Assembly: GCA_963674965.2 (NCBI GenBank) | Contig: CAXXFL010000003.1 | Coordinates: 288,001-352,000, forward strand | From: a bacterium | GTDB taxonomy: Bacteria > RBG-13-61-14 > DATKZS01 | Length of the DNA: 64,000 nucleotides | Direction: 5' to 3' | In this document: piece by piece, positions 1-64,000 of the stretch | How positions within the stretch are numbered: the first letter of the stretch is position 1 | Layout: the number at the start of each line of letters is the position of its first letter | Program-made: the position numbers and the translations under genes | The notes under the pieces: generated by a model | The model's database searches: none | The model's input: the letters and a program-made list of their open reading frames with translations, nothing else | Told to the model about the DNA's origin: nothing

Positions 1-290
1 GAGTTTTTTTTACGGCGTGAGGCATGGTTTGGAAAAACGCCGCATTGCCAGGCCCGCCTGGCCGGGGAGAGGTGGCGGGCGATGAATAATCCAAACGGGG
101 ACGCTTAAGTCCGAAAGCCATCAGCGGTGTTTTGGGCATGGAAATTGATATTCAACTCCTGGGATATTGGCTGGGACCAAAAAAAGGAAGGTCCGTAAGA
201 AGTGGCGGTTAAATATTTATAATTGCGGGGATTTTATCCGCCGATGTCCCGGAGGTTTCCTTTGATGCGGGAGATTTAGTTGATTATAAG

Positions 291-342
291 TAAATTAAAT
301 TAATATATAATTACATATAATTATATATAATTATAATAAAAA
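291..342. repeat. AT-only tract with 4x 10-bp tandem repeat and 20-bp palindrome, in the upstream region of the hybrid kinase
   Basis: 52 nt with a single C; 301-340 reads taatatataa/ttacatataa/ttatatataa/ttataataaa; 316-335 TATAATTATATATAATTATA is a perfect palindrome. Confidence 0.8.
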
Positions 343-497
343 GATTTTGCCCGGACGATAAGAAGGAATCGAGAAGAAAAGGATGAGAAGAGCAACATGC
401 CGAATTCGCTAAATAAAAATTGCAAGGCCCATGATTTTGCCAAGGGCGGGAATCGGCTGGACGTTTTTTCCCGATATCGGAAATTTGGCGGAGAGAA

Positions 498-3400
498 TTG
501 ATGAGTTACGACGCTAAAACTCGCGAGGAATTGATAAGGGAAATCGAGGACCTTAAAAAGAGGATCGAGCGTCACGAGGAGTCGGAAAGGGAGCGCAACC
601 GGGTGGAACGGGAACTCCGTCGGGAGCACGACCGGAACCAGCTTTACCTGGACACGGCCGGCGTAATCCTTGTCGCCCTTGACAGGGAGGGCAAGGTCTC
701 TCTTATCAATCGGGCTGGCCGGGAGATACTCGGGTTCGAGGAGCGCCAAATTCTTGGCCAGTCCTGGTTCGATCGCTTCCTTCCCGCCGACGCTCGGGCC
801 AAGACCAGGGAAATCTTCGCGAGGCTCATGAAGGGCGAACTCGAGGCGGTCAAGCAGGCGGAAGGCCGCATACTTTGCCGTGACGGGTCCGAGCGGGAGG
901 TACTGTGGACCAATTCCCTTATCTGGGACGACGGCGGCGAGATCATGGGCACGCTCAGCTCGGGTCTCGACGTGACGGGTGAGAAGTCGGCCCGCCGGGA
1001 GCTTCGGGAAAGCGAGGAAAAATTCCGCACCATCGCGGGTTCGGCCCAGGACGCCATCATCATGATGGACGGGAGCGGCAAAATTACCTTCTGGAACGAG
1101 GCGGCCCGTGACATCTTCGGTTGGGACTCGGGTGAAGTAATAGGCGAGGACCTCCACCGGGTGATCGCTCCCCAAAAGTATCATGAGGCCTACTCCCGGG
1201 GGCTTGGCCGCTTCTGGAAGGACGGGAGCGGCGCGGCGGTGGGCAACACCCTCGAGCTTACGGCCCTTCGCAAGGATGGTTTCGAGTTTCCCATCGAGAT
1301 ATCCGTGGCGGGCGTCGAGATGGGCGGCGAATGGCACGCGGTGGGCATCATTCGCGACATTACCGGGCGCAAGCTCGTGGAGGAGACCCTTCGCGAGAAC
1401 GAGGAGAAGTTCCGTACCATTTGCGACTCGGCCCAGGACGCCATCGTGATGATGGACCATCACGGCTCGGTCTCTTTCTGGAACGACGCGGCGGAGAAGA
1501 TATTCGGGTGGACGGCGGAGGAAACCTTTGGCGCGAACCTTCACGATCTCCTCGCTCCGCCGCGCTATCGAGAGGCCTCGGGCAAGGCCCTGGCCTCCTA
1601 TTTTCGGACCGGCCACGGCTCGGCCATCGGCAAGACCGTGTCCCTGGGCGCGATCAGAAAGGACGGCCGGGAGATACCGGTCGAGCTGTCCCTCGCCTCG
1701 GTCCATCTTCACGGGCAAAGGAGCGCCGTGGGCATCGTAAGGGACGTGACCGAGAGAAAGCGGATGGAGAGCAAGCTCAGCGAGAGCGAGGCCCGCATGA
1801 AGACGGTGCTCGAGGCCATCCATACCGGCGTGGTGGTGATAGACGCCGAGACTCGGGTCATTCTCGACGTGAACCCCTCCGCCGTCAAAATGATCGGGGC
1901 GCCCCGCGAAAAAATCGTCGGCAACGTCTGCCATCGCTTCATTTGTCCGCAGGGGGAGGGAAGGTGCCCAGTGTGCGACCTCAACCAGACGGTCGAGGAC
2001 GCGGAGGGGGTCCTGCTCCGGCCCAACGGCGGGCAGATTACCGTGCTTAAGACGGTGGTGCCGGTAACGATCCTGGGCAGGAAATGCCTCCTTGACTGCT
2101 TCGTGGACATTACCGAGAGAAAGAAAGCCGAGCTGGCACTGCACGAGGCCAAGGAGGCGGCCGAGGCCGCGGCCAGGGCCAAGAGCGAGTTCCTGGCCAA
2201 CATGAGCCACGAGATCAGGACCCCCATGAACGGAGTGATGGGCATGAACGGACTGCTGCTCGACACGGAGCTTACCCCCGAGCAGCGCGGCTACGCCGAG
2301 GCCGTTCAGAAAAGCGCCGAGTCCCTCTTAACGATCATCAACGACGTTTTGGATTATTCCAAGATCGAGGCGGGGAAAATAGACCTGGAGAAAATCGATT
2401 TCAATCCCCCGTCCCTTTTGGAGGAGGTCAACGACCTCATGGCGGTCAAGGCCCAGGAAAAGGGGATCGAGTACCTTTGCGAGGTCGGACGCGACGTGCC
2501 CTCCCTCTTGGCGGGCGACCAGGGAAGACTGAGGCAGGTGCTGACCAACCTGATCGGCAACGCGGTCAAGTTCACCGAAAAAGGGGAGATACTGGTCAAG
2601 GCCGAGCTCGAGGGGGAGGACGGCCTCGAGGCGGTCGTCAGGTTCTCGGTTACCGACACGGGGATCGGCGTGGATCCCGAGCGGCTCGAGTATCTTTTCC
2701 AGCCCTTCACTCAGGCCGACGCTTCCACCACTCGGAAGTACGGAGGCACCGGGCTTGGTCTGGGCATATCCCGCCGTCTGGCGCGGGCCATGGGCGGGCA
2801 AATCGGGGCCTGGAGCGTTCCCGGCCAAGGCTCGTCCTTCTGGTTCACGGCGCGGCTGGAGAAGCGACAAGGCGGGGCTGGGGTCGATTCCGGCGTGGAC
2901 CGGGACTTGAGGGGCGTGAGGGCGCTTATCGTGGACGATAATAGGACGAACCGCGCGGTGGTAAAAAAGTGGCTCGAGGAATGGGGGGCCGGCTGCGACG
3001 AGGCGGAGGATGGGCTGAAGGCCCTCGATATGACTCGCCGCGCCGCCGCCAATGGGCTCCCGTATCGGGCGGTCCTTATCGACATGCTGATGCCGGGCAT
3101 GGACGGTGAAAGCCTGGCCATGGAAATCAAGAAGGACGACGATATCGGGTCCGCCTCGCTGATCATGATGACCTCGATAGGGGGACTCGCAAGAGAGCGG
3201 GCCAGGGAGATCGGACTTCACTCCCTTTTAACCAAGCCCGTCAAGAAAAAGGAACTTCTGGCGTGTCTGCTTTCGGCCATCCGCGGCCATGATATCAAGG
3301 ACGAAAGCCCGGAAAGGCCCGTTCCCGTTCCAAGGGCCTTGAAAGGCGCCGCCAATAAGGGCCGCCTGATTTTGGTGGCCGAGGATAACCGGATCAACCA

Positions 3401-4118
3401 GATGGTGGCCCTTCGCGTGCTGGAGCGGCTGGGGTTCGAGGCCGAGGCGGTGGAGAACGGAAAAGAAGCCGTCTCGGCCGTGGCGGCCGGCAAATACGAT
3501 CTGGTGCTTATGGACGTGCAGATGCCGGAGATGGACGGGTTCGATGCGACAAAAAGGATACGGTCCGGAGAGGCGGGCGATGAATTCCGCTCGATCCCGA
3601 TAATCGCCATGACCGCTCACGCCATGAAGGGCGACATGGAAAGGTGCCTCGAGGCCGGCATGGACGATTATCTTTCCAAGCCCATCGACTCGTCCATGCT
3701 CGAGGCGGCGGTCAATCTCCACCTTGGCGACGGCCTGGAAAAATCCGCTTTGGACAAGGCGCCCGCCCCGCGCTCGAGGGAGGATGACGCCTTCGACGCC
3801 TCGGTCCTGGAGGAAAAACTGGAAGGAGACGAGGAACTGATTAAAATAATATTGCGGACCTTCCTGGAGGACGCGCCGCTTAGGATAGCCCAGATCAAGG
3901 AGGCGCTCTCGAGGGGCGACGGTGACGGCTATCGCGCTCCGGCCCATTCCTTGAAAGGGGCCTCGAGCAACGTGGGCGCCCGGGACATCCAGGAGTTGGC
4001 GCTTCGCATCGAGAAGGCCGGCACGGACGGCGACGCGGGACTGGCCATGGACCTGGTCGGGACGCTCGAGGAGAAATGGGAGCTTTTCAAAACGGCCGCC
4101 GGCGGCTATATTAATTGA
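498..4118 (+). CDS. Cytoplasmic multi-PAS hybrid sensor histidine kinase (4 PAS, HisKA, HATPase, 2 REC, Hpt)
   Basis: [16 protein letters not shown]-box; [25 protein letters not shown]; receiver motifs LIVDDN and LVAEDN...DVQMPEMDG; Hpt AHSLKGAS. Start could be ATG 501. Confidence 0.95.
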
Positions 4119-4152
4119 CGGTTTCTTGAATGTACGAAATGGAGACGGGTGG

Positions 4153-4782: not shown

Positions 4783-4792
4783 GGGGCCGGTC

Positions 4793-5296: not shown

Positions 5297-5335
5297 CGCG
5301 CGGTCTTTTTTAAGTCGGTTGACTGGTTTTCCGTT

Positions 5336-6310: not shown

Positions 6311-6339
6311 GGCGGTCTCCTTTTATCCATTCCCGAGGC

Positions 6340-6780: not shown

Positions 6781-6816
6781 GTCCCTTCATCTCCCGCCGC
6801 GAAAAGAGCGCCTAAT

Positions 6817-21300: not shown

Positions 21301-21708
21301 CATCTCCTGGAAGGCCAGGTCCACCCGCGCCTCGACCGGCCGCTCGCGGAGCAGTCTCGCGCAAAAGGAATGGATGGTGCCGATGAAGCACTTGTCCACG
21401 TCGGCCGCGGCCCTTGCCAGCCGGTCCCGCTCGGCCCCGTCCGCCTCGGCGGCTGCCCGCTCGAGGGCCACCCGGAACTTGGCCCGAAGCTCGGAGGCCG
21501 CCTTGCGGGTAAAGGTCACGGCCGCCATCTTGCCGACGGACGAGCATTTTCCCGAGCGGATCAGGGCCGTCATCCTGCCGATCATGCTCGTGGTTTTGCC
21601 CGCTCCGGCTCCGGCCTCGACCAGCATGCTTTGGCCCAGCTCGGTCAGTATAAGCTCCCGGGCCTCGTTGTCCGGCGGAAGGGAAGGGCGATGATCGGAT
21701 CGGCTCAT
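18301..21708 (-). CDS. addA: AddA-like UvrD superfamily-1 helicase-nuclease
   Basis: EAGAGAGKT, VDEFQDT, VGDPKQSIYRFRRAD, HKAKGLE, RLRYVAATRA; C-terminal GVIDL...IDYKT nuclease. Confidence 0.88.
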   Translation of the reverse strand: MSRSDHRPSLPPDNEARELILTELGQSMLVEAGAGAGKTTSMIGRMTALIRSGKCSSVGKMAAVTFTRKAASELRAKFRVALERAAAEADGAERDRLARAAADVDKCFIGTIHSFCARLLRERPVEARVDLAFQEMDDEADAALRDEAWNEFAARLAAGAEAETAAKLREAGLGAGDLAGAFRRFADFPDVDEWPAPEPADVDLISSGVAKKVLSYVDHMLETRPHLPDECGNDALIPKYKSVPLLVRHRGDMSDPACAAEVLCCFESNPSIVQKEWIKTKVFTGDDAKAEKARWMEMNEAAAPLLARWREKRYAAALAALIKAREIYDEARRSRGLLNFQDLLMISARLLRDFPHVRRYFARRWSHLLVDEFQDTDPIQAEVMTLLTASSQVEKDWRKCVPRPGSLFVVGDPKQSIYRFRRADVMTYNEVKKIIEAGGGTVVNLTANFRTTGSVIGWVNQVFGPDGGETFGEKGDMLRFRSAPSDESPAYSRLEVGRGDGEIGDLTGPFKLTIPKSRCGNKAAALEYETGRIARIIRDALDKGLTVTRSEKELAHGASSRVNASDFLIITRNTTNLSAFEAGLAGYGIPCRVTGGSSLAEIEEIGLLYKCLLCLNRPDDPSALVGLLRSELFGASDAALYEFKKGGGEFNFKAPPPEGLEGEGGRAIIEAFSRLSTYSEWLASMPAAAALERIASDLGLFALASARPAGDLAAGGLAKAVELARLENGRSRSVAGMADLLGSIASGEAKEDGIPATADLEPRVRIMNLHKAKGLEAPVVFLADASGGGDHPVTLHVDRSGGVTRGYMALYGESKGRGQGPLLAHSADWKDLMEKERGFLKAEELRLRYVAATRAGSALIVTQKGSYNGHNPWRFFGERLADAPEISDPEAQPPTARDAAAMSPEEAAEAGRAMAERYRASREPSIDSRGAKDYALSSAEAHGAAAKVRPADTGTGTSGQPTPFSESRAGESGPEWGSVIHQLLHLAARKPGADLCSYAEAILQDNDLDPSLASEALGVVSSVMASDVWRRAARAKVVLTEVPFQRAVAKDSSKPLLIKGVIDLAFREEDGWVVIDYKTDAVTEAAAKREAKRYAPQVELYKESLEACLGEKVKETGIYFTRLNKLVPVRDDKKR

Positions 21709-24700: not shown

Positions 24701-24839
24701 CCCCGGCCAGGGTTGCCGCGTCGAGCCATTGTCTTCCCACCCTTCTGGTGGGGGCCAGGATTATCTTAGGCTCCAGCCGCCTTTTCTGGAGGACTCGAGC
24801 GAGGGCGCCGGTCATTTCATTCAAAACGGTTGAGGTCAC
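21705..24839 (-). CDS. addB: AddB-like inactive helicase plus PD-(D/E)XK nuclease
   Basis: LSSSGLELLARCP, RGRIDRVD, VVDYKTG, LQGALY; ATGA overlap with the addA-like gene. Confidence 0.83.
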   Translation of the reverse strand: MTSTVLNEMTGALARVLQKRRLEPKIILAPTRRVGRQWLDAATLAGAPAFNARVTTMAGLALELASAELGRQGMSYLAGARQEALAAEIFSRLQDKGHDYLASLEPGPGVYGALLSTLLDLRMAGVGSFRLNPAAFEVQDKGREVLDALSEYESELDRQKLADYADVLAMASERVRVEDDVLGEGAVVIMPADDAERLTGLEKKLWQSIPQGTRATLPVDRPGSARPDAGSDASLLSWIGEPSRAPAARGDGSASIFSAAGETNEVRAVFRRVLAEGVPFDQVEIVHTDYGAYVPRLFETASLLAAGESGEIPATFAEGIPARYARPARALSAWARWIKDGYPQSSLARMIGEGLLIAEAAESGSAGYSALAAALRPLPIGLGRDSYQPIIEREIDALSARIKRSRKIGALEDDSPSSDSLKRRLAALKGLADLAERLMGFSPGPGDGQGRILSKAAEMAEAMARSANRLDEYVLHAMQRRLREMAEVLEEGDVPGFDALSWIEELPDGMSAEGLGPRPGRVHVSSLRGGGHSGRPCLFVIGLDEGRFPGAGLQDPIILDEERGNLSSALPTAAGRVRRGAEDLVRLLCRSRGKVCLSYPSSSVEDGRDNFPGLFLINAYRILSGRRDGALEDMAAWLGPPESFSASSGEGAALAHEWWTWRLAGKNKPSNAEEIAALCFPNLGRGKLAREARRSSAFTEYDGRVEAAGVDLDPFLPGGMTLSSSGLELLARCPMEFFFRYALEISLPEDYEPDPFSWLDAGEKGGLLHEAFRRFVDRLEKNGLSPRKERDLPELIRVVDELIELEKADNPPPNPEALERDRAELHLAAGIFAAEEEECRRSSRPCFLEASIGLPPVGDGTPLDSRSPVEIELPSGGRVRVRGRIDRVDSDLGSIGAGYSVVDYKTGSPYKFKIAPPFNCGRSLQGALYLAMLQARLDETFPGAEADGFSYLFTGPKGYGERLGWKAEDLLRGREIIEDLCSMIASGTFPFTSEVDDVKFTDYGAAFGPEAEMEERARSVLAKMASDPRLAAFARLRAKEEGKR

Positions 24840-40100: not shown

Positions 40101-43100
40101 GAGCGGCGACGGTGGAAAACTCCTGCTTGACGCGGCGGAAAGGATAAGCGACGTCAAGTTCCTTCACGAGGCCCGGATGGCCCTCGAGATAAGCGGGCTA
40201 AAGGAAGCCGAGTTGGCCGTCATTCGCAAACTGGTTCAGGCCAAAGACCCCAGTCCCGATGACGTCATCAGGCTGGTCAGGTACTTCCGCTTGAACGGGG
40301 GCGAGGAAATCGGCGCGGCGGCGGACTCGGCCGCGGCCGTCATAGCCTCCATTCCCGCCGCCAAGGCCAGGCTCCACTATTACCGGGAGCTGGTCGAGGA
40401 ACTGATCCTGGCGGGAAGGCTCGAGAGGGCGGCCGAGGCCCTGCGAAGGGTCCTGCCCGACGCGAGGGGAGACGATAAGAAAAGCGCGGTCCTCGAGTTC
40501 GCCCGGGTGCTGTCCGATCTCGATAATTACGCCGAGGCGGCGAACGCGCTCGATTCCCTTCTCGAGGAGCGAGGATGGGATGAGGACGTCTTTCGGGCGC
40601 TGGTGTCCGTCCACGTCGCCCGCAAGGACCATATTTCCATCATCGAGTTGAACGGGAAACAAAAGAAAGCCATCGCCTCCAAAATCAAGGGAGTCATGGA
40701 AAGAAGGCGGGAGTACGCCTCGCTTCATCTGGTCACCGCCTCGGCCCTGGCCGAGCTGCGTCGGGCGGGCGAGGCCCTGGATTACTACATGGAGTGGCTC
40801 AACCAGGACCCCACCGACCCGGACAAGCTGAGGACCGTTTTTGTTTACGCCAAACAAAGAGGCCTCGAGAAAAAGGTTATCGAGAGATACGAAAAGGAGG
40901 CGAGAACGGCGAACAAGGATTATCGCTGGTCTTTGTCGGCGGGCCGGCTCGAGGCCTGGGACCACGACTTGAAGGAAGCGGCCAAGTCGTATAACCGCGC
41001 CGCGTGGAACGAGCCGGGCAAGGCGGTCCTTTACGAGGAGGCGGCCAAGGTCCGCGTCGCCCTCCATGAATACGAGGAGGCCGCCAAACTGCTCGAGTCG
41101 CTTTACGCCATCGAGAAAGAATCGGACCAGCTTGGAAGGGCCGCCCGCTCCTGGGCCCTGGCCGGACGGGAGGACAAGGCCCTCGAGATAGTCGCCGCGA
41201 GCGTCAAAAGGGGCGGAGGCCGATCGAGATACTTCAAGGCCGCGCTGGCCCTCGAGGCGGCCGGGCTGCCGGAGGAGGGCCTGACTTACCTCGAGACCGG
41301 GCTCGAGGAGGCCCTGCAAAAAATCGAGAGGAACTCCATATCGCGAGGCGAGTTGGACGACCTGGTCCGCATTTACGCCAAGGCCGGCAAGACGGAAGAG
41401 GCCATGGACCTCATCTTCGGGGCCTGGTCGAGGGCCCTCGAGAAAAGCTCGAACCCGTCCAACAAGTACGTCAAGTGGAGGATCGACCAAAACCTCCGCG
41501 CCATCCGGACGGCCGCTCTCGAGACGATTCCTCTCGAGCTGTTGCAAAGAGGGAAAGCCCAAGACCTCGCGTCGGCCGAAAGCCGGATAAACGCCGCCAT
41601 GAAAGGATCGCCCTATCCCGCGGCCGACCTGGACGCCTTTGCTAAAAATTGCGGCTTCACCGACCAGGCCGCCGAATTGGTGGACGAGGAGTCGAAACGC
41701 GATTCCAACCACCTCCTCGTTATGGCCGACTTCTGGGCCGGAAGACTGGCCTGGAAAAAAGTTGTCGCCTTGGACGCTCAGCCCTCCAGGCGGCGCGCCA
41801 ACGCCTTCCTCTGGATGGATCAACCCGACAAGGCTCTGGCCGAGCTGACAAGCTTATACATGGTCCACTCCGGCGGATATGAGCCCCTCCTTTACCTGGC
41901 GGCCGAACGAAACGCGGAGCAAACGCTGAAGCTCTGCCTGGACGACGGGAGCAACGTGGCCGAGGAGGCCGATTACCTTGTCGAGCTGGGCCGTCCGGAC
42001 CTCGCCATCCGTACCATTCGGTCCAGCAAGGACCCGGTATGGAGCGCCTTTAAGGAAATGCTGGTAAAGGACCACTTCTCGGAGAAGGACCCCGAGCTGG
42101 CCGCTCGGGCGGCCGCGGCTCTTCGGAACTGGAGCGTGAGCGCCCGGCTTGACTCTCCCTTCAACGCCGCGCTCGAGGCCAGGGGCCACGAGTACTCGGT
42201 TATGGCCATGGAGTACGCCCGCTATCTGAAGCTTCTCGGCCGGGGTCCCGAGGCGCGGGACTTTTACTACGCGGCCGCGGAGGAAAGCCCGACTTCTTAC
42301 GAGGCTTTCCGGTACCAGGGAATACTGGCGCTGGAGATGGGCGACCTCGACCTGGCGAGGGACGGATTTGCCAAGGCCCTCGAGATCGAGCCGCCCGACC
42401 TTTCCTCCCGAAACGGCCTGGCCCTGGCTATCCTGAAGTCCGGAAACAAAAAGGACGCCCTTAAAAACCTGGAGCTTCTGGCGAAGGACTCCTCCACCTG
42501 GGACCGCGCCGAGTACAAGTACTACGCCATGCTCTCGCGGGGAATGGAAAAAGAGGCGGTGGAATTCATCGTCCGCTGGGCCAAGGCCGCCTACGCCGAT
42601 TATCGGGATTCGGGGATGCTCGGCGTTCGCGAGCTCGCCCTCCTGGCCGAGAAGAAACCCTCCCTTGCCCGGGCCCCGCTGACCGACCTCGTCCAATACC
42701 TCATCGCCTCATATCCGGACGACGTGGAACTGGCCTCATCGGCCGTTTTCGAGGAGCTGCTAAGGGGCAAGGACGCGGACCCGGCTTATGACGCCCTCGT
42801 CCTGGCTTACGGCAAGGACCGAAACGCCGAGGGCGATCTTCATCTCTGGGAGGATAGAAGGATCGACCACTGGCTCGATACCGGCAGGTATGAAGAGGCC
42901 CTGGAGGAGTTGAACCGGCGCGAGATTCCCCTTTCCCCGGGAGAGGTCCCGCCCGAGAACGTGAAGAGACGGGCCAGGGCCCTTATTGGAAAGGGAGAAA
43001 CCGGCGAGGCCCTTGTCTCTCTCGAGTCCTTTCTGAGCCTGGACCCGTATTCCTTGGACGCGCTCAAGCTGGCCCGCGAGGTGGCCCTGGAAGAGGGCCT

Positions 43101-44346
43101 TGCCGAAAAAGCCGACGAATACCAGGATAAACTGTTCAAGCTTCAGCTTGTGGACCCGGACGCGGGCCTTGAAGTCTACGAGGGATACGCCTCGTTCCTG
43201 GTCCGGTCGGGCGAGATGGACGCCGCCGCGGCCGTCGCCGAGCAAGCGGTCTCCGACAAGCCGGGCTCGCTCGCCGCGCTGATAAAGGCCGCCGCCATAT
43301 TCGAGGAGATGAAGGATTATCAAAAAGCCATCGGGCAAAGGCGCCTGGCGGAGGACCTCGAGCCCCAGGACGCGGGCAACCTCGCCGCGTTGGGCGCCGA
43401 CCTCATCCGGATCGGGAAGGAGAACGAAGCGCTTCTCGTTTTCCATGACGCCCTTGTCTCGAGCTCGATTTCCAGGAATCAAAAGATCGAGATGCTCCGC
43501 GTGGCCCGGGACGTCCTGATGGAGGGAAACGAGGAAGCCGCGAAAACGTTTTTCGATCACTTCAGCGAGCGGGCCGGCAAGGGTTCGGACTTCGACGACC
43601 TTATTTGCCTGGCCGCCGCCGTCTCGGCCAGGGCCGGGGGCGACGGGGAGTACGCGGCCCGGACGGCCTCGGCGCTCGTCGGACCCGGCTTTCCATCATC
43701 CTCCTCGTTCCTCGGCCAAACTCTCCTGGAAGCGGGACGCGCCAAGGAGGCGGCCGGGATTTTAACGGCAAGCCTTTACCGTTTCCCCGGCGACGACGAC
43801 GCCCGGGCCCTGCTTGGTCTTTGCCATTTGAGGCAAGGCGAGCCGGCCAAGGCGGTCAGTCTTATTTTCGGCCAAAGCGGTTATTTTTTGCCCGGCGAGT
43901 TCGAGGACGAGTACTGGGCGCGGGACCGGGCGCGCCAAGTCCTGGGCGGCGGGCTCGAGCTCGAGTTCAAGATCGAGCTTGTAAGAGGGCTGGCGGATGG
44001 ACTTCTCAAGCTGGAGTCGCATGACGCGGCGCTCGCGGCGCTTGGGACCCTGCTCGATTATCTATCGGAGGGCGGAGAATACGAAGGTCCATCCCGCGCT
44101 CACGAGGAAACGGTTTCCGCCGGCGCGCTGGACAAGGAGCTTTCCGAGTCCATCGGCAAGCAACTGGCGACGATCGAAAAGGCCCGCCGGGAGAAAGAAA
44201 AAGAGTCCGGGCAAAGGCCCCGCGTACTCGAGCGGCTCGACAACGCCGAGGCCTGGTCCGATTTGCCGCCCGACCTGGAGTTCCCCGGGAAATACTACTG
44301 GTCCATGGCGGATGAAGCCGCCGCCGGGAAGGAGGGACAAAAATGA
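37141..44346 (+). CDS. Giant exported TPR/alpha-solenoid protein (2401 aa)
   Basis: Signal peptide; many TPR-like units (e.g. GEALAERGRFGEALAWW, ARDGFAKALEIEP); ATGA overlaps at both ends. Confidence 0.88.
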   Translation: MIMSCLNRRKYFSAAMVLAASFFASALYCSSAAGSEKSRDPYFRSPEEVQVPGAVRARMDGLYYEFMPLMGSSCLAPRTPAEVEKGLAGLIEAFPEETDLYLERAGARRSMGDAAGALADIQTAVQKAKDKKRALRALADFYGDGLERKKEIEALDSLLAELEKGPTQNKAAIKSLIGEIISRASAGLVAIDEKAYRRRFVDLFPDDIEAALTYLKEVAKSSDEREALAETANFMGRFPERPEPFLAIMADIHYAGGHKDKAIEVYLDGLTPESRPSVFYSFFESLQKRDDLEAFANEIKNPAGKHSEKDKAIVFHLMLFDGDWEEASSFLERWLKDTPETKKEKLRTFARYFTLCQRHERAAQLRYGGLAEAGPKEREEWIGELYSSLLSSRSGAMAAPGSMAGPFSIRLLDPSPGITGGLLSLLLNGREMGETFSDISRMEERHANLALALNLLAKYREDFPDGRLAPEMEMAAIGRYWDLGYWNAAAAAADAFLRDHPENELAAAVLEKRCASLINLGRFEEADAGYGELLSRVGGDEDKYLAVLSEYARRLRSKERVPQMVALYWREVEAHPENRRLYDQFLQDISYLSLDEDKARLYRMAVKKIPGRGWYDRLSRYYLRSSMFAEYEETLGSAVESLPEDEIGPFLDGAVGEMKNSKWTAVKAALFLEAHRKYPRNPEYMKRYIQLAQKIEKWEKNSNSLPSPSSVEFARQNLMDDPQTDGFIGRSLLEGMMARDDLRSELARLEDGWSVNPAETYFLAIAHDHLGQYEKSLSHWRRLAEIYPGTAQFQETLSERLLGLSRSRPKEYPSSSSEAVEVMSRAAKMYPASSRFPTAIGEALAERGRFGEALAWWDKPIEAEPGRPGPYLRAAEIAWDYYQYDAAIERLRLARERLKDPALFALEIGAVLEDKGQADQAIAEYVNALCQKDGRSQYKILSRLDALAGREGLESLIDSRFQAAILHAPSNPGPVWSYYDYLNLRERSGDGGKLLLDAAERISDVKFLHEARMALEISGLKEAELAVIRKLVQAKDPSPDDVIRLVRYFRLNGGEEIGAAADSAAAVIASIPAAKARLHYYRELVEELILAGRLERAAEALRRVLPDARGDDKKSAVLEFARVLSDLDNYAEAANALDSLLEERGWDEDVFRALVSVHVARKDHISIIELNGKQKKAIASKIKGVMERRREYASLHLVTASALAELRRAGEALDYYMEWLNQDPTDPDKLRTVFVYAKQRGLEKKVIERYEKEARTANKDYRWSLSAGRLEAWDHDLKEAAKSYNRAAWNEPGKAVLYEEAAKVRVALHEYEEAAKLLESLYAIEKESDQLGRAARSWALAGREDKALEIVAASVKRGGGRSRYFKAALALEAAGLPEEGLTYLETGLEEALQKIERNSISRGELDDLVRIYAKAGKTEEAMDLIFGAWSRALEKSSNPSNKYVKWRIDQNLRAIRTAALETIPLELLQRGKAQDLASAESRINAAMKGSPYPAADLDAFAKNCGFTDQAAELVDEESKRDSNHLLVMADFWAGRLAWKKVVALDAQPSRRRANAFLWMDQPDKALAELTSLYMVHSGGYEPLLYLAAERNAEQTLKLCLDDGSNVAEEADYLVELGRPDLAIRTIRSSKDPVWSAFKEMLVKDHFSEKDPELAARAAAALRNWSVSARLDSPFNAALEARGHEYSVMAMEYARYLKLLGRGPEARDFYYAAAEESPTSYEAFRYQGILALEMGDLDLARDGFAKALEIEPPDLSSRNGLALAILKSGNKKDALKNLELLAKDSSTWDRAEYKYYAMLSRGMEKEAVEFIVRWAKAAYADYRDSGMLGVRELALLAEKKPSLARAPLTDLVQYLIASYPDDVELASSAVFEELLRGKDADPAYDALVLAYGKDRNAEGDLHLWEDRRIDHWLDTGRYEEALEELNRREIPLSPGEVPPENVKRRARALIGKGETGEALVSLESFLSLDPYSLDALKLAREVALEEGLAEKADEYQDKLFKLQLVDPDAGLEVYEGYASFLVRSGEMDAAAAVAEQAVSDKPGSLAALIKAAAIFEEMKDYQKAIGQRRLAEDLEPQDAGNLAALGADLIRIGKENEALLVFHDALVSSSISRNQKIEMLRVARDVLMEGNEEAAKTFFDHFSERAGKGSDFDDLICLAAAVSARAGGDGEYAARTASALVGPGFPSSSSFLGQTLLEAGRAKEAAGILTASLYRFPGDDDARALLGLCHLRQGEPAKAVSLIFGQSGYFLPGEFEDEYWARDRARQVLGGGLELEFKIELVRGLADGLLKLESHDAALAALGTLLDYLSEGGEYEGPSRAHEETVSAGALDKELSESIGKQLATIEKARREKEKESGQRPRVLERLDNAEAWSDLPPDLEFPGKYYWSMADEAAAGKEGQK

Positions 44347-46104: not shown

Positions 46105-48180
46105 ATGAAAAATGAAGGAAAAGAAAAAAGGTCCTTGAAAAAAGTCCCGGCCGAGATCGGACGCGCTCTTTTGGCGGCGGCCGCGGCGGCCTTTTCCACC
46201 GGGGCGGTTTCCTTTTACAGGGGCAACTTCGCCACCAGCCCCCTCGTCTCCTTCGCCCTTTTCGGGGCCGCGCTGTGGCTGGTTTTAAGACTGATCGTTT
46301 TCAGGAAGTCCCGGGGGCGAAGGTCGCCCGCTCCGATAGCCGCCTATTTTATTTCCGTCGTCATCCTGTCTTTTATAACTCACCGGGCGGAGCCGACCTC
46401 GGTCAGCTACCTTCCCCTGGGGGACGAAAGCGGGGCCGAGCTATCCGGGCCCCTTCACGACGCGCTCAAGGTCAAGGTGACCGGGCCTTTCAGAACGGAG
46501 ACCCGGGCGGCCTCCCGGATGCCTCTCGTTCCCGGCCTGGCCTTTTCCTTAGCCGTGCCCAAGGACGGCGTTCTTAACCTGGGGGCCCTGGCCGAGAGTA
46601 AAGGCCGTCCCGTCGGGGACGTGGTCATCGAGGTCGCGATCGGCGGACAAGCGGGAGTCGGCCGCCGGAAAATCGGGGAGGTCGCCACTTCCGCCGAGGG
46701 CTGGAGCGACGTATCCATCGACCTTTCCGGCTTCGGTCCGGGTCGGGCCGGCGTCTCCCTGCAAGTCGCGTCCGGCGAGCTGGGCCATCTGAAGGAAACG
46801 AGCCTCTGGGTCAGCGGGCCTCGAGTCTCGACGCGCTCAGGTGCGCCCAACTTGATGCTCATCGTTATCGACACGCTCCGAGCGGATCATCTGTCCTGCG
46901 ATCCCGCCGCTCCGAGAGCGACCCCCAACCTGGCCAAGTGGGCGGCGCGCGGGACCTGGTTCACCCGCAACTACTCCCAAAGCTCCTGGACCCTTCCATC
47001 CATCGCCTCCATCTCCACCTCGCGCATGCCGGCCGAGACCGGAGCGGTCAACGTCAGCGAGTTCAAGCTCGAGGACCGAAACCTCACTTTGGCGGAGACC
47101 CTCTCGAGCCTCGGATACGGGACCGCCATGGTCACGGCCAACCGCGTCATCTCCGCCGGAAACGGGTTCGACCAGGGGTTCGACTCCTTCGTCTCCGTCA
47201 AAAGCAGGCTAAGATACTCGCTCGGAAACGCGCACAGGGTCAACCGGGAGACGCTTGATATAATCGAGCGAGCGTCACCACCCTTTTTCGTCTTCGCCTT
47301 GTACATCGACCCGCATATGCCTTACCTGGCCCCCTGGTCGGACGCGGACTACGCGGGCGTCCTGGGCCAGGCCTTCTTCTCCAGCGCCGGGGCCATGCTC
47401 GATAACTTCATGTCCTCTTCCATTACCGGCTACAGGCGACCGGCGCCCTGGAGCGTTGAGGCCAACAAGCGCCTATACGACGGGGAGGTCAGGTACGTGG
47501 ACCGGGCGTTGGGAGAGCTTTTCGAGGAGTTGGAAAAGCGGGGCCTCCTGGAGAACCTGGTGGTAGTGATCGCCTCGGACCATGGGGAGGAGTTCGCGGA
47601 GCACGGACTTACCGGCCACGGCACGTCTCTTTTCGAGGAACTGATCCGCGTTCCCCTCGTGGTGATAGACTTTCGGGAGGAGGGGCAAAAAGTCGCGAGG
47701 TGGGACGGACTGACCACCAACCTGGACGTGGCGCCCACCTTGCTGGACCTGGCGGGCTTTCCTCCCGCCGAGGGCATGTTGGGGAAATCCTTGAGGCCCG
47801 TCATGATGGGACAATACGAAAGCCGGGAAAGGGCCGCCTTTTCCGAGCTTCCCGAGATACTCCACTACGGGGAACTCGAGGAGATTCACCGGCCCGGGCT
47901 GCGCGACTCCTACCTCCGTTCCATGGTGCGGGAAAAAAAGAAACTGATCAGTCACGTCAACCTTAAGGACAAGGGGGTTACGATTTCCGCTTTCGACCTT
48001 GCTCTCGATCCCTCGGAGGTCATGGACCTTAAGATCGACCCGCCCCCCTGGATGTCCGGGTCGCGGGAGGAAATGGAGCTTTTCTTCGGCGACATGCCCG
48101 ACCCCCACGACCTTCCGAGGGGCGAGCCGCTCGACGCCGGGACCCTGGACCTCCTCAAGACCCTCGGCTACGTGCAGTGA
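46105..48180 (+). CDS. Membrane-anchored sulfatase-like (alkaline phosphatase superfamily) protein, Thr-type
   Basis: 3 TM helices; PNLMLIVIDTLRADH, TPNL, SSWTLPS, DPHMPY, YDGEVRYVD, SDHGEEF, LDVAPT, LKTLGYV. Confidence 0.88.
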   Translation: MKNEGKEKRSLKKVPAEIGRALLAAAAAAFSTGAVSFYRGNFATSPLVSFALFGAALWLVLRLIVFRKSRGRRSPAPIAAYFISVVILSFITHRAEPTSVSYLPLGDESGAELSGPLHDALKVKVTGPFRTETRAASRMPLVPGLAFSLAVPKDGVLNLGALAESKGRPVGDVVIEVAIGGQAGVGRRKIGEVATSAEGWSDVSIDLSGFGPGRAGVSLQVASGELGHLKETSLWVSGPRVSTRSGAPNLMLIVIDTLRADHLSCDPAAPRATPNLAKWAARGTWFTRNYSQSSWTLPSIASISTSRMPAETGAVNVSEFKLEDRNLTLAETLSSLGYGTAMVTANRVISAGNGFDQGFDSFVSVKSRLRYSLGNAHRVNRETLDIIERASPPFFVFALYIDPHMPYLAPWSDADYAGVLGQAFFSSAGAMLDNFMSSSITGYRRPAPWSVEANKRLYDGEVRYVDRALGELFEELEKRGLLENLVVVIASDHGEEFAEHGLTGHGTSLFEELIRVPLVVIDFREEGQKVARWDGLTTNLDVAPTLLDLAGFPPAEGMLGKSLRPVMMGQYESRERAAFSELPEILHYGELEEIHRPGLRDSYLRSMVREKKKLISHVNLKDKGVTISAFDLALDPSEVMDLKIDPPPWMSGSREEMELFFGDMPDPHDLPRGEPLDAGTLDLLKTLGYVQ

Positions 48181-59101: not shown

Positions 59102-59974
59102 GTGAAAGACGGACGCTACATCATTACGGCGCTTCTTCTGATCGCGCTTCCGTTGGCCGTGCTGGCGAAAGGCGAGGCGGACGACTGGGCCAAGGCCCAG
59201 AAAAAGGGCACCATTCAGGCCTACGACGAGCACCTGAAGAACTACCCGAGGGGGACCTACTCCGAGCAGGCGAAAAGGGAGGCCTCGAGACTGAGCGGTC
59301 CCGAGCTTCAGAACTCGGCTTCCCGGTGCGACTCCCTGTTTCCCCGGGTCTTTTATTACTCGGTCTCGGCCTCGGGCGCTCCGGTGGTAAGCGGGGCGGC
59401 GGTCAGCTCCAGCCTGGACAAGGCCGCCGGCTGCATGGGCATGGCCAAGAGCATCGGCAAGGACGACAGGCCTCACGCGGCGGCCGGGCTTTTGGATTCG
59501 CGCTCGAGCCTGGTCCAGATGAACGTCCAGGGCGTGGGCGTTCGAGAGGTTATCAACCTGGACCTCGTCCTGCTCGAGATCGAGAACGAGGTGATAATGG
59601 ACGCCTACGACGAGACGGTGAAATGCAAGAACCAGAGCGCCTGGGTTGACACTCCCAAGTCGGAGGTCTTCAAGTGCTCGAGGCCCCACCAGGAGGTCCA
59701 GGCCCGCATGGCCCAAGCCATGTCCGACCAGTTGAAATACGACTTCGCCAACGTGTCCTCCGTGCCCGACGAGAATTTCCGCATGGGCTTCTGGAAGGAA
59801 GTTAACGGCATGTGCCGATGGCTGGTCCTGGAGCAGATGGGCCCGGCCTTCGGACTCTACGCCGACGCCAAGAACGCCATGGCCCGGGAGCCCAACAAGA
59901 ACATCGCGGGCAAAATCGAGGACGTGTCCATCAAGCTGGCCGGAACCGGAAAGCCCACCGGCGGCTTCAGATAA
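59102..59974 (+). CDS. Secreted hypothetical protein
   Basis: SD GGAGG; signal peptide; DWAKAQKKGTIQAYDEHLKNYPRGTYSEQA helical-hairpin motif; six Cys. Confidence 0.75.
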   Translation: MKDGRYIITALLLIALPLAVLAKGEADDWAKAQKKGTIQAYDEHLKNYPRGTYSEQAKREASRLSGPELQNSASRCDSLFPRVFYYSVSASGAPVVSGAAVSSSLDKAAGCMGMAKSIGKDDRPHAAAGLLDSRSSLVQMNVQGVGVREVINLDLVLLEIENEVIMDAYDETVKCKNQSAWVDTPKSEVFKCSRPHQEVQARMAQAMSDQLKYDFANVSSVPDENFRMGFWKEVNGMCRWLVLEQMGPAFGLYADAKNAMAREPNKNIAGKIEDVSIKLAGTGKPTGGFR

Positions 59975-60059
59975 TCGAGCGGCCGGCCGGGAAAAAACCC
60001 GACGCCGGGAATGGGGACGCCGGTCCGCGGCGCATCGGCCGGGCCCGGCGGGAGATCGG

Positions 60060-61412: not shown

Positions 61413-61429
61413 GAAAGTACTGGACTAGT

Positions 61430-62854: not shown

Positions 62855-62904
62855 GGATAAAATCTCCCTTCCAGTTGAAGTAAACGAGAGGAGGGCTTTC
62901 GCGT

Positions 62905-63768
62905 TCAGTCGCCTCTCTCTTGTATTTTCCGGATCAGGTCGTAAACTTCTTGTCTTTTCCATCCCGTTTTCCTGGCTATCTCGGATGCCAGGCGGGACGG
63001 AGGATGACTCTTTTCGTCCAGGGCAAGGAGGACCATGTTTTCCACCTCCTCTTGAGAAGCGGCCGCCTTCTCCTTCGCGCCGCCTATCACGACCGTGACC
63101 TCGCCCTTGATCTCGCGTCCAGAGAGGGCCTTGATTATTTGTCCCAGGGTCCCGCCGATCCTTTCCTCATGCATCTTGGTAAGCTCGCGAAACAGGACCG
63201 CTTCCCTGTCTCCAAGAACGGCCAAGGCGTCTTCCAGGAAATCGAGCGTCCGGCGGGGAGACTCGAAGAACACCAGGGCGTCGCGCCTGTCGGCCAGTTC
63301 CTCGAGGGCCCTTTTTCTTGCTCCCGACTTCGCGGGCAAAAACCCGGCGAAGGTCACCCGGTCGGAGGGCAGCCCCGAGACGGATACGGCGGCGGTGAGG
63401 GCCGAGGGCCCCGGAATGGGCGAGGTTTTGATCCCCCGCCGGGCGCAGGCCTTGACCAGCCTGTAGCCGGGATCGGAAACCGCGGGAGAGCCGCCGTCCG
63501 TTACCAGGGCCACGTCCTTTCCTTCCTCGAGGAGGCGAATGATTCCGGGGATCGCCTCCTCCTCCCTGGGCTCGTAATAGCTGGAAATGGGTTTTTGAAT
63601 CCCCAGGCTGGAAAGAAGGGCCCGGGTCCTTCTCGTGTCCTCGGCCGCCACGTGGGCGACCTCCTCGAGGGTCCGCCTGACTCGGGGGCTTACGTCCTCG
63701 AGGTTGCCGATCGGCGTGGCCACCACGTAAAGAACGCCTGGCGCTTCCCTGGTTTTATCGCCGGACAT
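62905..63768 (-). CDS. rsmI: 16S rRNA (cytidine1402-2'-O)-methyltransferase
   Basis: LYVVATPIGNLED, AEDTRRT, VSDPG, PGPSA, FESPRR, RELTKMHE, KGE. Confidence 0.95.
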   Translation of the reverse strand: MSGDKTREAPGVLYVVATPIGNLEDVSPRVRRTLEEVAHVAAEDTRRTRALLSSLGIQKPISSYYEPREEEAIPGIIRLLEEGKDVALVTDGGSPAVSDPGYRLVKACARRGIKTSPIPGPSALTAAVSVSGLPSDRVTFAGFLPAKSGARKRALEELADRRDALVFFESPRRTLDFLEDALAVLGDREAVLFRELTKMHEERIGGTLGQIIKALSGREIKGEVTVVIGGAKEKAAASQEEVENMVLLALDEKSHPPSRLASEIARKTGWKRQEVYDLIRKIQERGD

Positions 63769-64000
63769 CAGACCGCCGGGAAGGCGCCGTCCAGCGCCCG
63801 GGCGAAAAGAGGGACCAGTAACCACTCGGCGGCCCTGATCGCGAGAAGGGACGCGCAAAACCCGGCGTAAAGGAGGCGGTAGAAATTCCGGAACCCGGCA
63901 ATATCGTCGTTTCCGTTCCAGGCCCGGTAATAATAAGCCCGCTCGATCCATACGGCCAGGAGCAGCGCTCCAATAAGGACGTACATGGGCGCGGCCCTGC
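63768..64000 (-). CDS. C-terminal part of a membrane protein that probably starts beyond the window
   Basis: Hydrophobic ORF (YVLIGALLLAVW...) whose TGA overlaps the rsmI ATG. Confidence 0.55.
   Translation of the reverse strand, partial: RAAPMYVLIGALLLAVWIERAYYYRAWNGNDDIAGFRNFYRLLYAGFCASLLAIRAAEWLLVPLFARALDGAFPAV

Follow-up and report, generated by a model that had tools for sequence, protein, structure and literature searches.

CTCGAG is over-represented in all three frames and in intergenic DNA of an uncultured bacterium from a phylum sampled by 13 genomes

Introduction

The palindrome CTCGAG recurs throughout the stretch of DNA analysed here (64,000 nucleotides; hereafter the window), which raises the question of whether its frequency exceeds what base composition and codon choice would produce, and what might have put it there. 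In classical theory, a resident restriction enzyme causes its host to avoid the recognition word. The passages on site avoidance in Rusinov et al. (2015; PMC4687349) describe genomes encoding a restriction enzyme as normally avoiding its site, with few and unexplained exceptions. Words in excess are known from cyanobacteria, where HIP1 (GCGATCGC) is over-represented 15-300x according to the figures on this word in Xu, Lawrence and Durand (2018; PMC5861425), and where iterated palindromes, including alternative highly iterated palindromes, are linked to methylases in the parts of Elhai (2015; PMC4390886) that deal with them. A reading of the window from its sequence alone had likened CTCGAG to HIP1, and here we weigh that analogy against several explanations.

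Results

CTCGAG is in excess in all frames and between genes

The 171 copies in the window (Table 1) compare with 21.4 expected from base composition, an 8.0-fold excess. Base composition gives one copy per 3.0 kb, much as the sequence-only reading had estimated (about 1 per 3 kb), while its GC content judged by eye (63-65%) was corrected to a computed 62.2%. Its counts for two genes (13 and 18) were exact, and its three off-frame examples lie at the positions and in the frames claimed. By frame, 131 copies in the window are in-frame CTC-GAG, 34 are nnC TCG AGn and 2 are nCT CGA Gnn, and the remaining 4 lie past the last gene fully contained in the window. The 33 called genes hold 167 copies, 2.9 times the mean of 57.5 obtained in 200 synonymous shuffles of these genes, in which the maximum was 79.

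Table 1. Positions of CTCGAG copies and of genes discussed in the text (window numbering unless a contig is given)
Feature	Coordinates	Strand	Details
CTCGAG, dispersed copies	1..64000	.	171 sites, 2.7 per kb
PAS/HisKA/HATPase/receiver hybrid histidine kinase gene	498..4118	+	Pfam; 13 CTCGAG
Off-frame CTCGAG, GCC TCG AGC	3962		in gene 498-4118 (+)
Vsr (T:G mismatch endonuclease) gene, 167 aa	4793..5296	-	Pfam Vsr 3.1e-20; TIGR00632 2.2e-29
1044-aa gene	21705..24839	-	18 CTCGAG; among the genome's densest stretches
Seven CTCGAG within <400 bases	22383-22758 (= G000:C3:310383-310758)		in gene 21705..24839
2401-aa gene	37141..44346	+	30 CTCGAG
Seven CTCGAG within <400 bases	41182-41538 (= G000:C3:329182-329538)		in gene 37141..44346
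CTCGAG in the rarest frame, CCT CGA GTC	46820..46825	+	in gene 46105-48180 (+)
CTCGAG in the nnC TCG AGn frame, GCC TCG AGA	59284..59289	+	in gene 59102-59974 (+)
XhoI-family restriction-modification pair	G000:C6:34917-36517		outside the window

The source genome (G000; 7 contigs, 4,289 called genes) contains 10,762 copies, 1.7 per kb overall and between 1.21 and 2.01 per kb on each contig. The ratio of observed to expected copies was 5.27 against base composition and 4.2 and 3.14 against Markov models of orders 1 and 2, and CTCGAG ranked first by z among the 4096 hexamers at both orders. When codons were shuffled synonymously within each gene, the word was still 2.84-fold in excess and again headed all 4096 hexamers. 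By frame (in-frame CTC-GAG, nCT CGA Gnn and nnC TCG AGn, respectively), the shuffle-based ratios were 2.79, 3.60 and 2.98 in all genes and 2.90, 4.65 and 3.10 in 1,502 high-confidence genes; the two off-frame classes number 184 copies against 51 expected and 1963 against 659. In intergenic DNA (2,319 short segments) 167 copies were found against 67 from dinucleotide shuffles, a 2.5-fold excess. The excess thus persists (2.8x) when protein sequence and the codon usage of each gene are controlled for, and it extends beyond in-frame Leu-Glu to all frames and short intergenic DNA, the two points at which the earlier reading could have failed. The enrichment of GGCC that it had also suspected is mild (1.88 against base composition, 1.29 after synonymous shuffling).

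A translation-level cause, with CTC and GAG as favoured codons and CTC-GAG as a preferred codon pair, would fit the 78% of genic copies that are in-frame Leu-Glu, and the peaks in the spacing of copies at 9, 21 and 30 bases would fit Leu-Glu pairs in helices. We find such a cause scarcely credible, and as the main cause it is refuted by the off-frame and intergenic excess, which is equal to or larger than the in-frame one in the two other frames. Nor did the excess rise with codon adaptation, the ratio being flat over the adaptation classes (2.75-2.89); relatives of equal codon preference lack it, and GAG-CTC, made of the same two codons in reverse, stands at 0.46. In the lowest 5% of genes by codon adaptation or GC3 the ratio drops to 1.72 to 1.98, and the low-GC islands have almost no CTCGAG. 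Foreign-looking genes, we observed, have the smaller excess. Around the 10,762 copies, 42% have C at -1 and 42% have G at +1, with otherwise no common flank, and their spacing is over-dispersed (CV 1.49) and not even.

The whole six-letter word is favoured over its neighbours

CTC-GAG encodes 62% of all Leu-Glu pairs in the genome. The comparison of CTCGAG with CTGGAG at Leu-Glu pairs, suggested from the sequence, favoured the palindrome, with CTC-GAG at 2.78 of expectation and CTG-GAG at 0.55. The choice of CTC hinges on the codon that follows (2.78 before GAG, 0.56 before GAA), the one-step synonymous neighbours of the word are drained, and the site base is favoured at all six positions, transversions included. 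Among words one letter off, ratios at order 1 range from 1.35 to 2.67 for changes at the outer positions and from 0.13 to 1.44 for changes at the inner ones. The word has entered the genome mainly by synonymous change.

These data bear on the proposal that no site-specific process exists and that the word is a sum of drifting lower-order preferences (TCGA, CTCG and CGAG up, CA/TG passing to CG, abundant Leu and Glu). In line with it, the ratio falls to 1.22 and 0.94 at Markov orders 3 and 4, the Karlin-type highest-order ratio is 0.965, and the outer variants ATCGAG (2.67) and GTCGAG (2.34) are themselves raised at order 1. TCGA is also the tetramer most raised relative to related genomes (2.36 versus 1.28), and many CG-containing tetramers are up and CA/TG-containing ones down in the same comparison. 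Measures conditioned on sub-words of four or five letters thus detect no CTCGAG excess, but they are insensitive here, because they return only 1.18 for genomes in which CTCGAG is enriched 36x. Moreover, TCGA and CTCGA inherit the excess of the full word, since CTCGAG itself accounts for 19% of TCGA and 42% of CTCGA occurrences. Against drifting preferences stand also the first rank of CTCGAG among 4096 hexamers at order 1, at order 2, after synonymous shuffling and relative to relatives, the dependence of the choice at position 3 on position 6 and the depletion of the sister palindromes GTCGAC and TTCGAA, and we judge this proposal improbable.

The excess is specific to the lineage

Four genomes of the same family, with GC of 57-61% and codon use similar to that of G000, gave CTCGAG ratios of 0.91, 1.01, 0.66 and 1.66. 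Relative to the pooled DNA of the family, CTCGAG is the most raised hexamer (5.27 versus 1.53), and the odds ratio for the flanks of TCGA comes to 0.82 in G000 versus 0.24. G000 is the sole member of its genus among the genomes compared, and in a metagenome scan the nearest SecA match had 57% identity, with none closer. The data point to a lineage-specific, genome-wide bias at the DNA level toward the whole six-letter word, and not to codon usage. Multi-copy families gave no sign of a present net gain of CTCGAG, with roughly 12 independent losses against 4 gains, small numbers polarised by majority rule.

The Vsr gene of the window points to GGATCC

Dcm and Vsr of E. coli are thought to raise CCWGG. 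By analogy, 5-methylcytosine at CTCGAG followed by Vsr correction of T:G to C:G would turn CTTGAG and CTCAAG into CTCGAG, which is a concrete route for the methylation-directed repair that the sequence-only reading had raised. The Vsr gene of the window is the one match in the whole genome, the genome has one 5-methylcytosine methylase (PF00145), both are host-like in composition, and no in-frame alternative to CTC-GAG is more depleted than CTT-GAG (0.17). The loss of deamination products is, however, not strand-symmetric in genes, in intergenic DNA or relative to relatives: in genes CTTGAG stands at 0.28 but its reverse-strand form CTCAAG at 1.52, the pair stands at 1.74 in intergenic DNA and at 0.92 versus relatives, and TTGA/TCAA (0.93 versus relatives) did not fall while TCGA rose. 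The preference for the site base at all six positions, transversions included, likewise speaks against this route. Close homologues of the PF00145 methylase (57-64% identity) belong to a cassette that also comprises DUF4928 and Vsr, with a Vsr match nearby at 62 of 82 loci, and at 25 cassette loci the most depleted palindrome was GGATCC (60 versus 191), which fell below half in 23 of the 25 and stands at 0.09 in G000. Across 50 genomes with homologues of 49-64% identity, the CTCGAG:GAGCTC ratio ran from 0.08 to 25 without trend. Vsr and the 5-methylcytosine methylase therefore look tied to GGATCC, not CTCGAG; we set the window's Vsr aside as a candidate driver, and an origin of the excess in very-short-patch repair is very unlikely and close to refuted.

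An XhoI-family pair has a presumed CTCGAG target

The sequence-only reading had suggested looking for a methyltransferase that targets CTCGAG or TCGA. Elsewhere in the genome (Table 1), a PF01555 methylase gene does overlap by 4 bases a nuclease gene of the XhoI family (PF04555; 1.8e-89, positions 2-190 of 191, without stops); the nuclease is apparently intact, and CTCGAG is the presumed target of both, for the nuclease from its family membership only and for the methylase from the family of its partner only. Motif IV of the methylase is SPPY, which would mark it as an N4-cytosine methylase. Besides this gene, G000 has six other methylase genes. A methylase homologue is paired with an XhoI-family gene in three other genomes (G042, G068 and G002). 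GC3 is 0.54 in the nuclease gene, below all 4,289 called genes, and 0.75 in the methylase gene, where it is host-like along the full length (0.70-0.86); the methylase gene also contains two CTCGAG found in none of 4 homologues, and it looks long resident. The presumed target is enriched and not avoided in this host, though the words of resident systems usually are avoided. A SacI-family nuclease gene in the same genome is broken by an in-frame TAG, and its word GAGCTC is depleted (0.47 in genes, 0.24 in intergenic DNA).

Among the mechanisms weighed, we rank first, and hold tentatively, the reading in which the methylated site is the favoured state and is made by the host-adapted methylase of this pair. 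Besides the frame-independent, whole-word and lineage-specific nature of the excess, the full-length nuclease with its overlapping methylase, the recurrence of the pairing, the host-like GC3 and the two CTCGAG of the methylase gene speak for it, as does the precedent of methylase-tied iterated palindromes in the relevant parts of PMC4390886. So does the 13-genome phylum of G000, where both other enriched genomes carry such a methylase: G012 (CTCGAG 2.15) has a homologue at 71% identity, and G010 (1.88) has a methylase of a different class adjoining an XhoI-family fragment. Against it, G011 has a homologue at 70% identity but a ratio of 0.99, and G068 (63%) has only 0.30 copies per kb. Of the 364 genomes of the G042 phylum, 43 carry a homologue of 56-73% identity; these include 25 of the 33 genomes G271-G303, a block in which no XhoI-family nuclease was found and in which the CTCGAG:GAGCTC ratios of carriers and non-carriers are equal. 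Homologous methylases elsewhere thus occur both with and without CTCGAG enrichment. Also against a causal methylase, restriction ought to select against new CTCGAG, the target is assigned through the partner's family only, no MutH was found in G000, losses outnumber gains in the multi-copy families and the sites are over-dispersed.

The strongest excess in the comparison belongs to uncultured Deinococcales (G192-G214), with 5-8.5 copies per kb and an excess of 36x at order 1 that is still 8-10x once codons are shuffled synonymously (G197, G212), and neither an XhoI-family nuclease nor a close homologue of the PF01555 methylase was found in them. As in G000, the word is the same, all frames are affected and GAGCTC is also depleted. 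The Deinococcales differ in degree (G000 has 1.7 per kb, 4.2x and 2.8x) and in showing no rise of one-off words and a flank odds ratio of 18.8, whereas in G000 outer one-offs are raised and the ratio is 0.82. These genomes suggest that a word-specific bias at the DNA level may come from some other CTCGAG reader or a repair bias, with the XhoI-family pair unrelated, present by chance or because cutting the commonest palindrome of the host works especially well on phages with similar word usage, and too recent to have purged sites. That account, to which we give nearly as much weight as to the first-ranked reading, draws on the low GC3 of the nuclease gene, on the unenriched methylase carriers (G011, G068 and the G271-G303 block) and on the distribution of the nuclease family: uninterrupted genes were found in six genomes, all with 0.7 or more copies per kb (G000, G042, G221, G223, G224 and G236), and remnants occur in 3 of 13 genomes of the G000 phylum, compared with 7 of 364 and none of 14 in the other sets. 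Against it, no candidate CTCGAG reader was found, the methylase gene looks long resident, and the pattern of host richness amounts to hardly more than a single observation, all five carriers of the other phylum being closely related.

Discussion

We infer that complete sites are slightly favoured in fixation, by about ln 3 in scaled units per site, through weak selection or through repair or recombination drive. In the reading ranked first, the host-adapted methylase would methylate CTCGAG, and methylated sites, by analogy with Elhai's cyanobacterial model, would be used or shielded by strand-aware repair or another DNA transaction, so that sites would be gained faster than lost. The nuclease gene, lowest in GC3, would be a passenger that either arrived recently or is kept under tight control, and it would not yet have imposed avoidance. 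A link between CTCGAG methylation and the excess is possible. A wider version, which we think unlikely, places G000 at the beginning, or at a weak stage, of the process that fills uncultured Deinococcales with CTCGAG, with a host-adopted methylase tipping the balance of gain and loss; in G000 the process would be strong enough to overcome the avoidance expected from an uninterrupted cognate nuclease. The codon-aware ratios would form a graded series, from about 1x in the family relatives through 2-3x in G010, G012 and G000 and 3x in G239 and G072 to 8-10x in G197 and G212.

Among known systems, DNA uptake sequences of competent bacteria are 9-12 letters long and non-palindromic. HIP1 is closer to CTCGAG in G000: both are short, lineage-specific palindromes present in every frame and between genes at a density of about 1 per kb, with one-off variants commonest at the outer positions. 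HIP1 genomes also encode a methylase that recognises the word or its core, for which G000 has a candidate assigned through its partner's family. The analogy drawn from the sequence holds in frame independence, intergenic occurrence and outer one-offs, and it overstated the size, since G000 lies below the HIP1 range (5.27x base composition, 4.2x order 1, 2.84x shuffled, against 15-300x in the published figures cited above). HIP1 further has eight letters and an orphan methylase, where CTCGAG has six and a methylase-nuclease pair, and the over-dispersed spacing in G000 counts as another difference.

In Helicobacter, CCGG is over-represented in genomes with a CCGG restriction-modification system, and in their passage on it Rusinov et al. 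(PMC4687349) say that they can offer no biological explanation for the excess. There, as in G000 with its presumed target, a resident orthodox type II system coexists with an excess of its recognition word instead of avoidance; the Helicobacter ratio (Kr about 1.4-1.5) is conditioned on sub-words, whereas CTCGAG in G000, with its Karlin-type 0.965, would go unflagged and shows its excess in lower-order, codon-aware and relative-based controls. XhoI/PaeR7I-type systems (PF04555) resemble that of G000 in the full-length nuclease with an adjacent methylase as a recurring pair; unlike the expectation for their hosts, G000 is enriched for the presumed target, and its nuclease and methylase genes differ in GC3. 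Nocardia, in the section of Blow et al. (2016; PMC4752239) that concerns it, has an orphan CTCGAG methylase and clusters of sites at the replication origin, between dnaA and dnaN, a likeness in that CTCGAG methylation possibly serves the host instead of restriction. In G000 no such non-coding cluster was found, the maximum being 5 sites in 300 bases.

One genome shows two outcomes, GAGCTC depleted beside a decaying SacI-family system and CTCGAG enriched beside an uninterrupted XhoI-family system, and so lends itself well to the question of what can override avoidance. The puzzle of iterated palindromes now reaches a phylum sampled by 13 genomes, in a mild case whose steps are traceable, with conversion partial at 62% of Leu-Glu pairs and the neighbours drained. 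If the methylase is not causal, a high word count would still be no proof that a restriction enzyme is absent. If it is causal, the 30-year-old question of HIP-type words would gain a testable mechanism, and if the graded series is true, the origin of iterated palindromes would be datable and the gene findable by comparison.

CTCGAG is, A/T runs apart, the most over-represented hexamer of the genome

The sequence-only reading had counted by hand 13 CTCGAG in 498-4118 and 18 in 21705-24839 of the window and had cited three off-frame examples, at 3962, 46820 and 59284; our recount reproduced these figures exactly and found each example in the frame claimed. The whole window (G000:C3:288001-352000, GC 62.2%) holds 171 CTCGAG against 21.4 expected from base composition, and across the 6.50 Mb, seven-contig assembly of the source genome, G000, the word occurs 10,762 times, at 1.21-2.01 per kb on every contig. 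Its genome-wide observed/expected ratio (O/E) of 5.27 is the highest among hexamers other than A/T runs, and Markov models of order 1 and 2 gave 4.2 and 3.14, rank 1 of 4096 in both. At orders 3 and 4 the ratio was 1.22 and 0.94, and the Karlin-type highest-order ratio was 0.965. Because 42% of CTCGA in G000 lies inside CTCGAG, the sub-words on which these high-order measures are conditioned carry the excess themselves, and the same measures yield only 1.18 in other genomes where CTCGAG is 36-fold enriched; we therefore read the low values as insensitivity and not as refutation. The reading under which the excess is the summed drift of lower-order word preferences was kept as a rival, and we rank it third, as unlikely.

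Along the chromosome, low-GC islands are poor in CTCGAG, and the low-GC stretch listed in the table is probably recently acquired DNA. Spacing is not even (coefficient of variation 1.49; 218 gaps longer than 3 kb vs 74 expected). A repeat element carrying the word was rejected since the flanks are not conserved.

Coordinates of the features discussed in the text
Feature	Location	Strand	Remarks
Vsr gene	window 4793-5296	-	only one in G000
Epimerase gene	window 5336-6310		beside Vsr gene
Very long gene	window 37141-44346	+	2401 aa; 30 CTCGAG
PF00145 methylase gene	G000:C3:248882-249976		only one in G000; 39 kb upstream of window
Open frame, 75 aa	G000:C6:34666-34893 (L101:1178-1405)		46% GC; just upstream of nuclease gene; no family match
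XhoI-family nuclease gene	G000:C6:34917-35633		PF04555, 1.8e-89; full length, no stops
PF01555 methylase gene	G000:C6:35630-36517		4-base overlap with nuclease gene
Low-GC stretch	G000:C6:260000-380000		GC 48-54%; 1-8 CTCGAG per 20 kb
MmeI-like enzyme gene	G000:C6:351209-355135		one of two; inside low-GC stretch
Decaying SacI-family system	G000:C2:655402-657346 (L277:609-2553)		adjoins ychF
XhoI-family fragment and Eco57I-type methylase	G010:C255:487-3588 (L102)		adjoin an epimerase 56% identical to that of the window

The excess is independent of frame and of codon usage

Genic sites were analyzed in 4,289 genes from a crude in-house calling script, covering 81% of the genome. They numbered 7,827 in the frame CTC-GAG, 184 as nCT CGA Gnn and 1,963 as nnC TCG AGn, and 20 rounds of gene-by-gene synonymous codon shuffling gave expectations of 2,805, 51 and 659, i.e., ratios of 2.79, 3.60 and 2.98 and an overall ratio of 2.84, the largest excess among all 4096 hexamers. 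Miscalled antisense genes were considered as a source of the nnC TCG AGn excess: 57 of the 4,289 calls had no margin over other frames, and in the 1,502 genes whose called frame is clearly ahead of the five others the ratios were 2.90, 4.65 and 3.10, so that such miscalls are not the cause. In intergenic DNA, represented by 2,319 segments 20-400 bases long and totalling 309 kb, the sites numbered 167 vs 67 in dinucleotide-preserving shuffles; words outranking CTCGAG there include ribosome-binding site, -35 box and start-codon context words. The proposal that the palindrome is iterated irrespective of frame thus stands, in all three frames and in short intergenic DNA.

Leu-Glu pairs are written CTC-GAG in 7,827 of 12,692 cases (62%; 2,812 expected), and in 131 of 188 within the window. 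The alternatives CTG-GAG (O/E 0.55), CTT-GAG (0.17) and CTC-GAA (0.56), set beside CTG-GAA (0.95) and TTG-GAA (0.89), show that C at position 3 is preferred only with G at position 6; neighbours one step from CTC-GAG are drained more strongly than two-step neighbours. Above the 5th percentile of codon adaptation the synonymous-shuffle ratio held level at 2.75-2.89, and it dropped to 1.72-1.98 in the lowest 5% of genes by adaptation or GC3. On the frame, codon-adaptation and codon-pair tests, together with the comparison of relatives, codon usage, codon-pair or translational selection was rejected as the main cause, and a cause at the level of translation is scarcely credible.

The bias arose in the lineage of G000

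The samples taken from relatives measured 40-160 kb each; closely related genomes do not count as independent. Over whole genomes, GAGCTC, the control of the same composition, occurs 1,421 times in G000, and four genomes of the same family hold 1,722, 2,295, 1,911 and 2,492 CTCGAG and 3,177, 2,496, 3,913 and 3,273 GAGCTC, respectively. In 57-100 kb samples of these four, with GC of 57-61% and codon preferences alike, shuffle ratios of 0.91, 1.01, 0.66 and 1.66 were obtained. Compared with the pooled same-family DNA, no hexamer of G000 is raised more than CTCGAG (O/E 5.27 vs 1.53) and none lowered more than GAGCTC (0.70 vs 2.28); the odds ratio linking a C before TCGA to a G behind it is 0.82 vs 0.24. 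There is also a broad shift in G000 from CA/TG-containing to CG-containing tetramers, TCGA leading. A SecA metagenome scan for closer relatives gave a best match of 57% identity, which was of no use. Elsewhere in the phylum, CTCGAG occurs only 23, 45 and 19 times in G006, G008 and G013 (genomes of 2.0-2.6 Mb), and the word therefore swings from near zero to three-fold excess inside one small phylum. Another member, G009, avoids TCGA (85 vs 297 expected in 77 kb, L247-L256). The polarity of changes in multi-copy families, about 12 losses vs 4 gains with repeats removed by eye (raw 23 vs 6, families multiply counted), is too small a set to weigh and gave no sign of current net gain.

The ratio for GAGCTC in G000 is 0.47 within genes and 0.24 between them, a two- to four-fold genome-wide depletion. 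The SacI-family locus consists of an uninterrupted D12-class methylase frame followed by a nuclease gene with an in-frame TAG, and this separate system is a simpler explanation than a mechanism coupling the rise of CTCGAG to the fall of GAGCTC, which we rejected; ordinary avoidance is thus seen in G000 for GAGCTC and its opposite for CTCGAG. The many other palindromes strongly avoided after synonymous shuffling include CAGCTG (0.10), CGTACG (0.25), CTGCAG (0.36), GTCGAC (0.38) and TTCGAA (0.45). CACA/TGTG reaches 0.22 of the count that base composition predicts; enrichment is 6-8x for A/T runs and 3.8x for TGGCCA (order 1).

An XhoI-family system is present, and homologues of its methylase occur with and without the excess

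The XhoI-family nuclease-methylase pair of G000 sits between secA and a UbiA-family gene. Its PF01555 methylase carries the motif TSPPYW, in which SPPY is a putative mark of an N4-cytosine methylase. The 75-aa open frame beside the pair could encode a controller protein of the system. PF04555 was matched in 3 of 13 genomes of the phylum of G000, 7 of 364 of the phylum of G042 (five without stops), 3 of 59 other genomes (one full length) and 0 of 14 control genomes. Within the first phylum the gene is uninterrupted in G000, truncated with an 8-residue deletion in G002, where it adjoins a methylase homologue and both are decayed, and reduced in G010 to a fragment of 83 residues that adjoins an Eco57I-type methylase, of which G000 has only a 24% relative. 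A methylase homologue also adjoins an XhoI-family gene in G042 (58% identity) and a fragmented nuclease in G068 (63%). The nuclease gene has a GC3 of 0.54, lower than every called gene of G000; the methylase gene has 0.70-0.86 along its whole length vs 0.47-0.64 in four homologues, and holds two CTCGAG that all four lack. G000 further encodes a second PF01555 methylase, an Eco57I-type, an Eco57I + TaqI_C, two MmeI-like and one D12 protein.

Within the phylum, a shuffle ratio of 2.15 was found in G012 (71% methylase homologue, nuclease not found), 1.88 in G010, with its methylase of another class, and 0.99 in 40 kb of G011 (our own arithmetic puts its whole genome at about 1.0), which has a 70% homologue; G001 and G003-G008 have only 32-39% relatives or none. 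A 56-73% homologue occurs in 43 of 364 genomes of the phylum of G042, including 25 of the 33 in the block G271-G303 (64-69%), where no XhoI-family nuclease was matched, CTCGAG:GAGCTC ratios are the same in carriers and non-carriers, and the gene looks like a conserved orphan methylase. Given these enrichment-free carriers, the methylase is at most necessary but not sufficient, and perhaps irrelevant.

In the phylum of G042, the block G192-G214 and G072 hold 12,000-35,000 CTCGAG each (3.6-8.5 per kb). Most genomes of the block have fewer than 30 GAGCTC and none more than 568, and G072 has 1,197. In samples of G197 and G212 the order-1 ratio was 36.6x, and the synonymous-shuffle control still left 8-10x, with every frame in excess. 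One-off words were at about 1, the flank odds ratio was 18.8 and many other palindromes were absent; in 180 kb (L207-L216) AGGCCT, ATGCAT, CCGCGG, CGGCCG, CTGCAG, GAGCTC, GGGCCC and TCGCGA all number 0. G197 has seven PF01555-type methylase matches. G239 and G072 show an excess of about 3x. A search of the hyper-rich genomes found neither the XhoI family nor a close homologue of the G000 methylase in any. An alternative is that some other CTCGAG-directed process acts and that the restriction system was a late or favoured arrival; we rank this a close second, as hardly less probable than the first.

Vsr repair is a poor candidate

The sequence-only reading had offered methylation-directed repair as one of three possible sources, and the window carries a Vsr gene. 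Both this gene and the PF00145 methylase gene are host-like in composition. Homologues of that methylase (57-64% identity, many phyla) lie in a cassette together with DUF4928 and Vsr, with a Vsr match near 62 of 82 loci; the DUF4928 protein (308 aa) is probably the cassette's nuclease, and its gene is absent from G000. The cassette is tight in other phyla; in G000 Vsr and the 5-methylcytosine methylase are both orphans, 44 kb from each other. At 25 cassette loci GGATCC was the most depleted palindrome (60 vs 191, order 2, 245 kb; below half in 23 of 25), and in G000 GGATCC, AGATCT and AGATCC stand at 0.09, 0.05 and 0.06 of the synonymous-shuffle expectation, RGATCY words being nearly missing. 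In 50 genomes with 49-64% methylase homologues (50 of 79 distinct loci) CTCGAG:GAGCTC ratios spanned 0.08 to 25 and showed no trend. The traces expected of T:G-to-C:G repair were also missing: CTCAAG stands at 1.52 in G000 genes, the CTTGAG/CTCAAG pair at 1.74 in intergenic DNA and 0.92 vs relatives, TTGA/TCAA at 0.93 vs relatives, and all six CTCGAG positions favour the site base, transversions included. With CTCAAG and TTGA/TCAA not depleted and GGATCC the depleted word, the Vsr form of the proposal was set aside, and Vsr repair as the cause is very improbable. MutH was not found in G000, which has two MutS genes, a point against every model in which strand-directed repair works as in E. coli. 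The epimerase neighbourhood, occupied by Vsr in the window and by XhoI-family remains in G010, may be a spot where restriction and repair genes have settled repeatedly.

Comparison with known systems

A literature search outside supplements, in part limited to the 15 top-ranked papers, found no account of genome-wide CTCGAG over-representation in bacteria. The available text on cyanobacterial iterated palindromes (PMC4390886) describes features that CTCGAG shares: frame-independence, a methylase in the genome (here a candidate for the word) and variants biased to the outer positions. Its enrichment falls short of that of HIP1 as given in the accessible part of PMC5861425. As with CCGG in Helicobacter, the presumed word of a resident type II system is in excess; among the resident type II sites surveyed there only 47, CCGG included, were over-represented, and the authors leave the CCGG case unexplained (PMC4687349). 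Unlike Nocardia, where an orphan CTCGAG methylase accompanies site clusters at the origin (PMC4752239, in the text available), G000 yielded no origin-type cluster. The bias in G000 is word-specific, acts at the DNA level, arose in its own lineage and is not yet present in foreign-looking genes. As to its source, methylation-linked gain or retention of CTCGAG sites ranks first by a narrow margin, as a tentative choice, with a remainder left to explanations not considered here.
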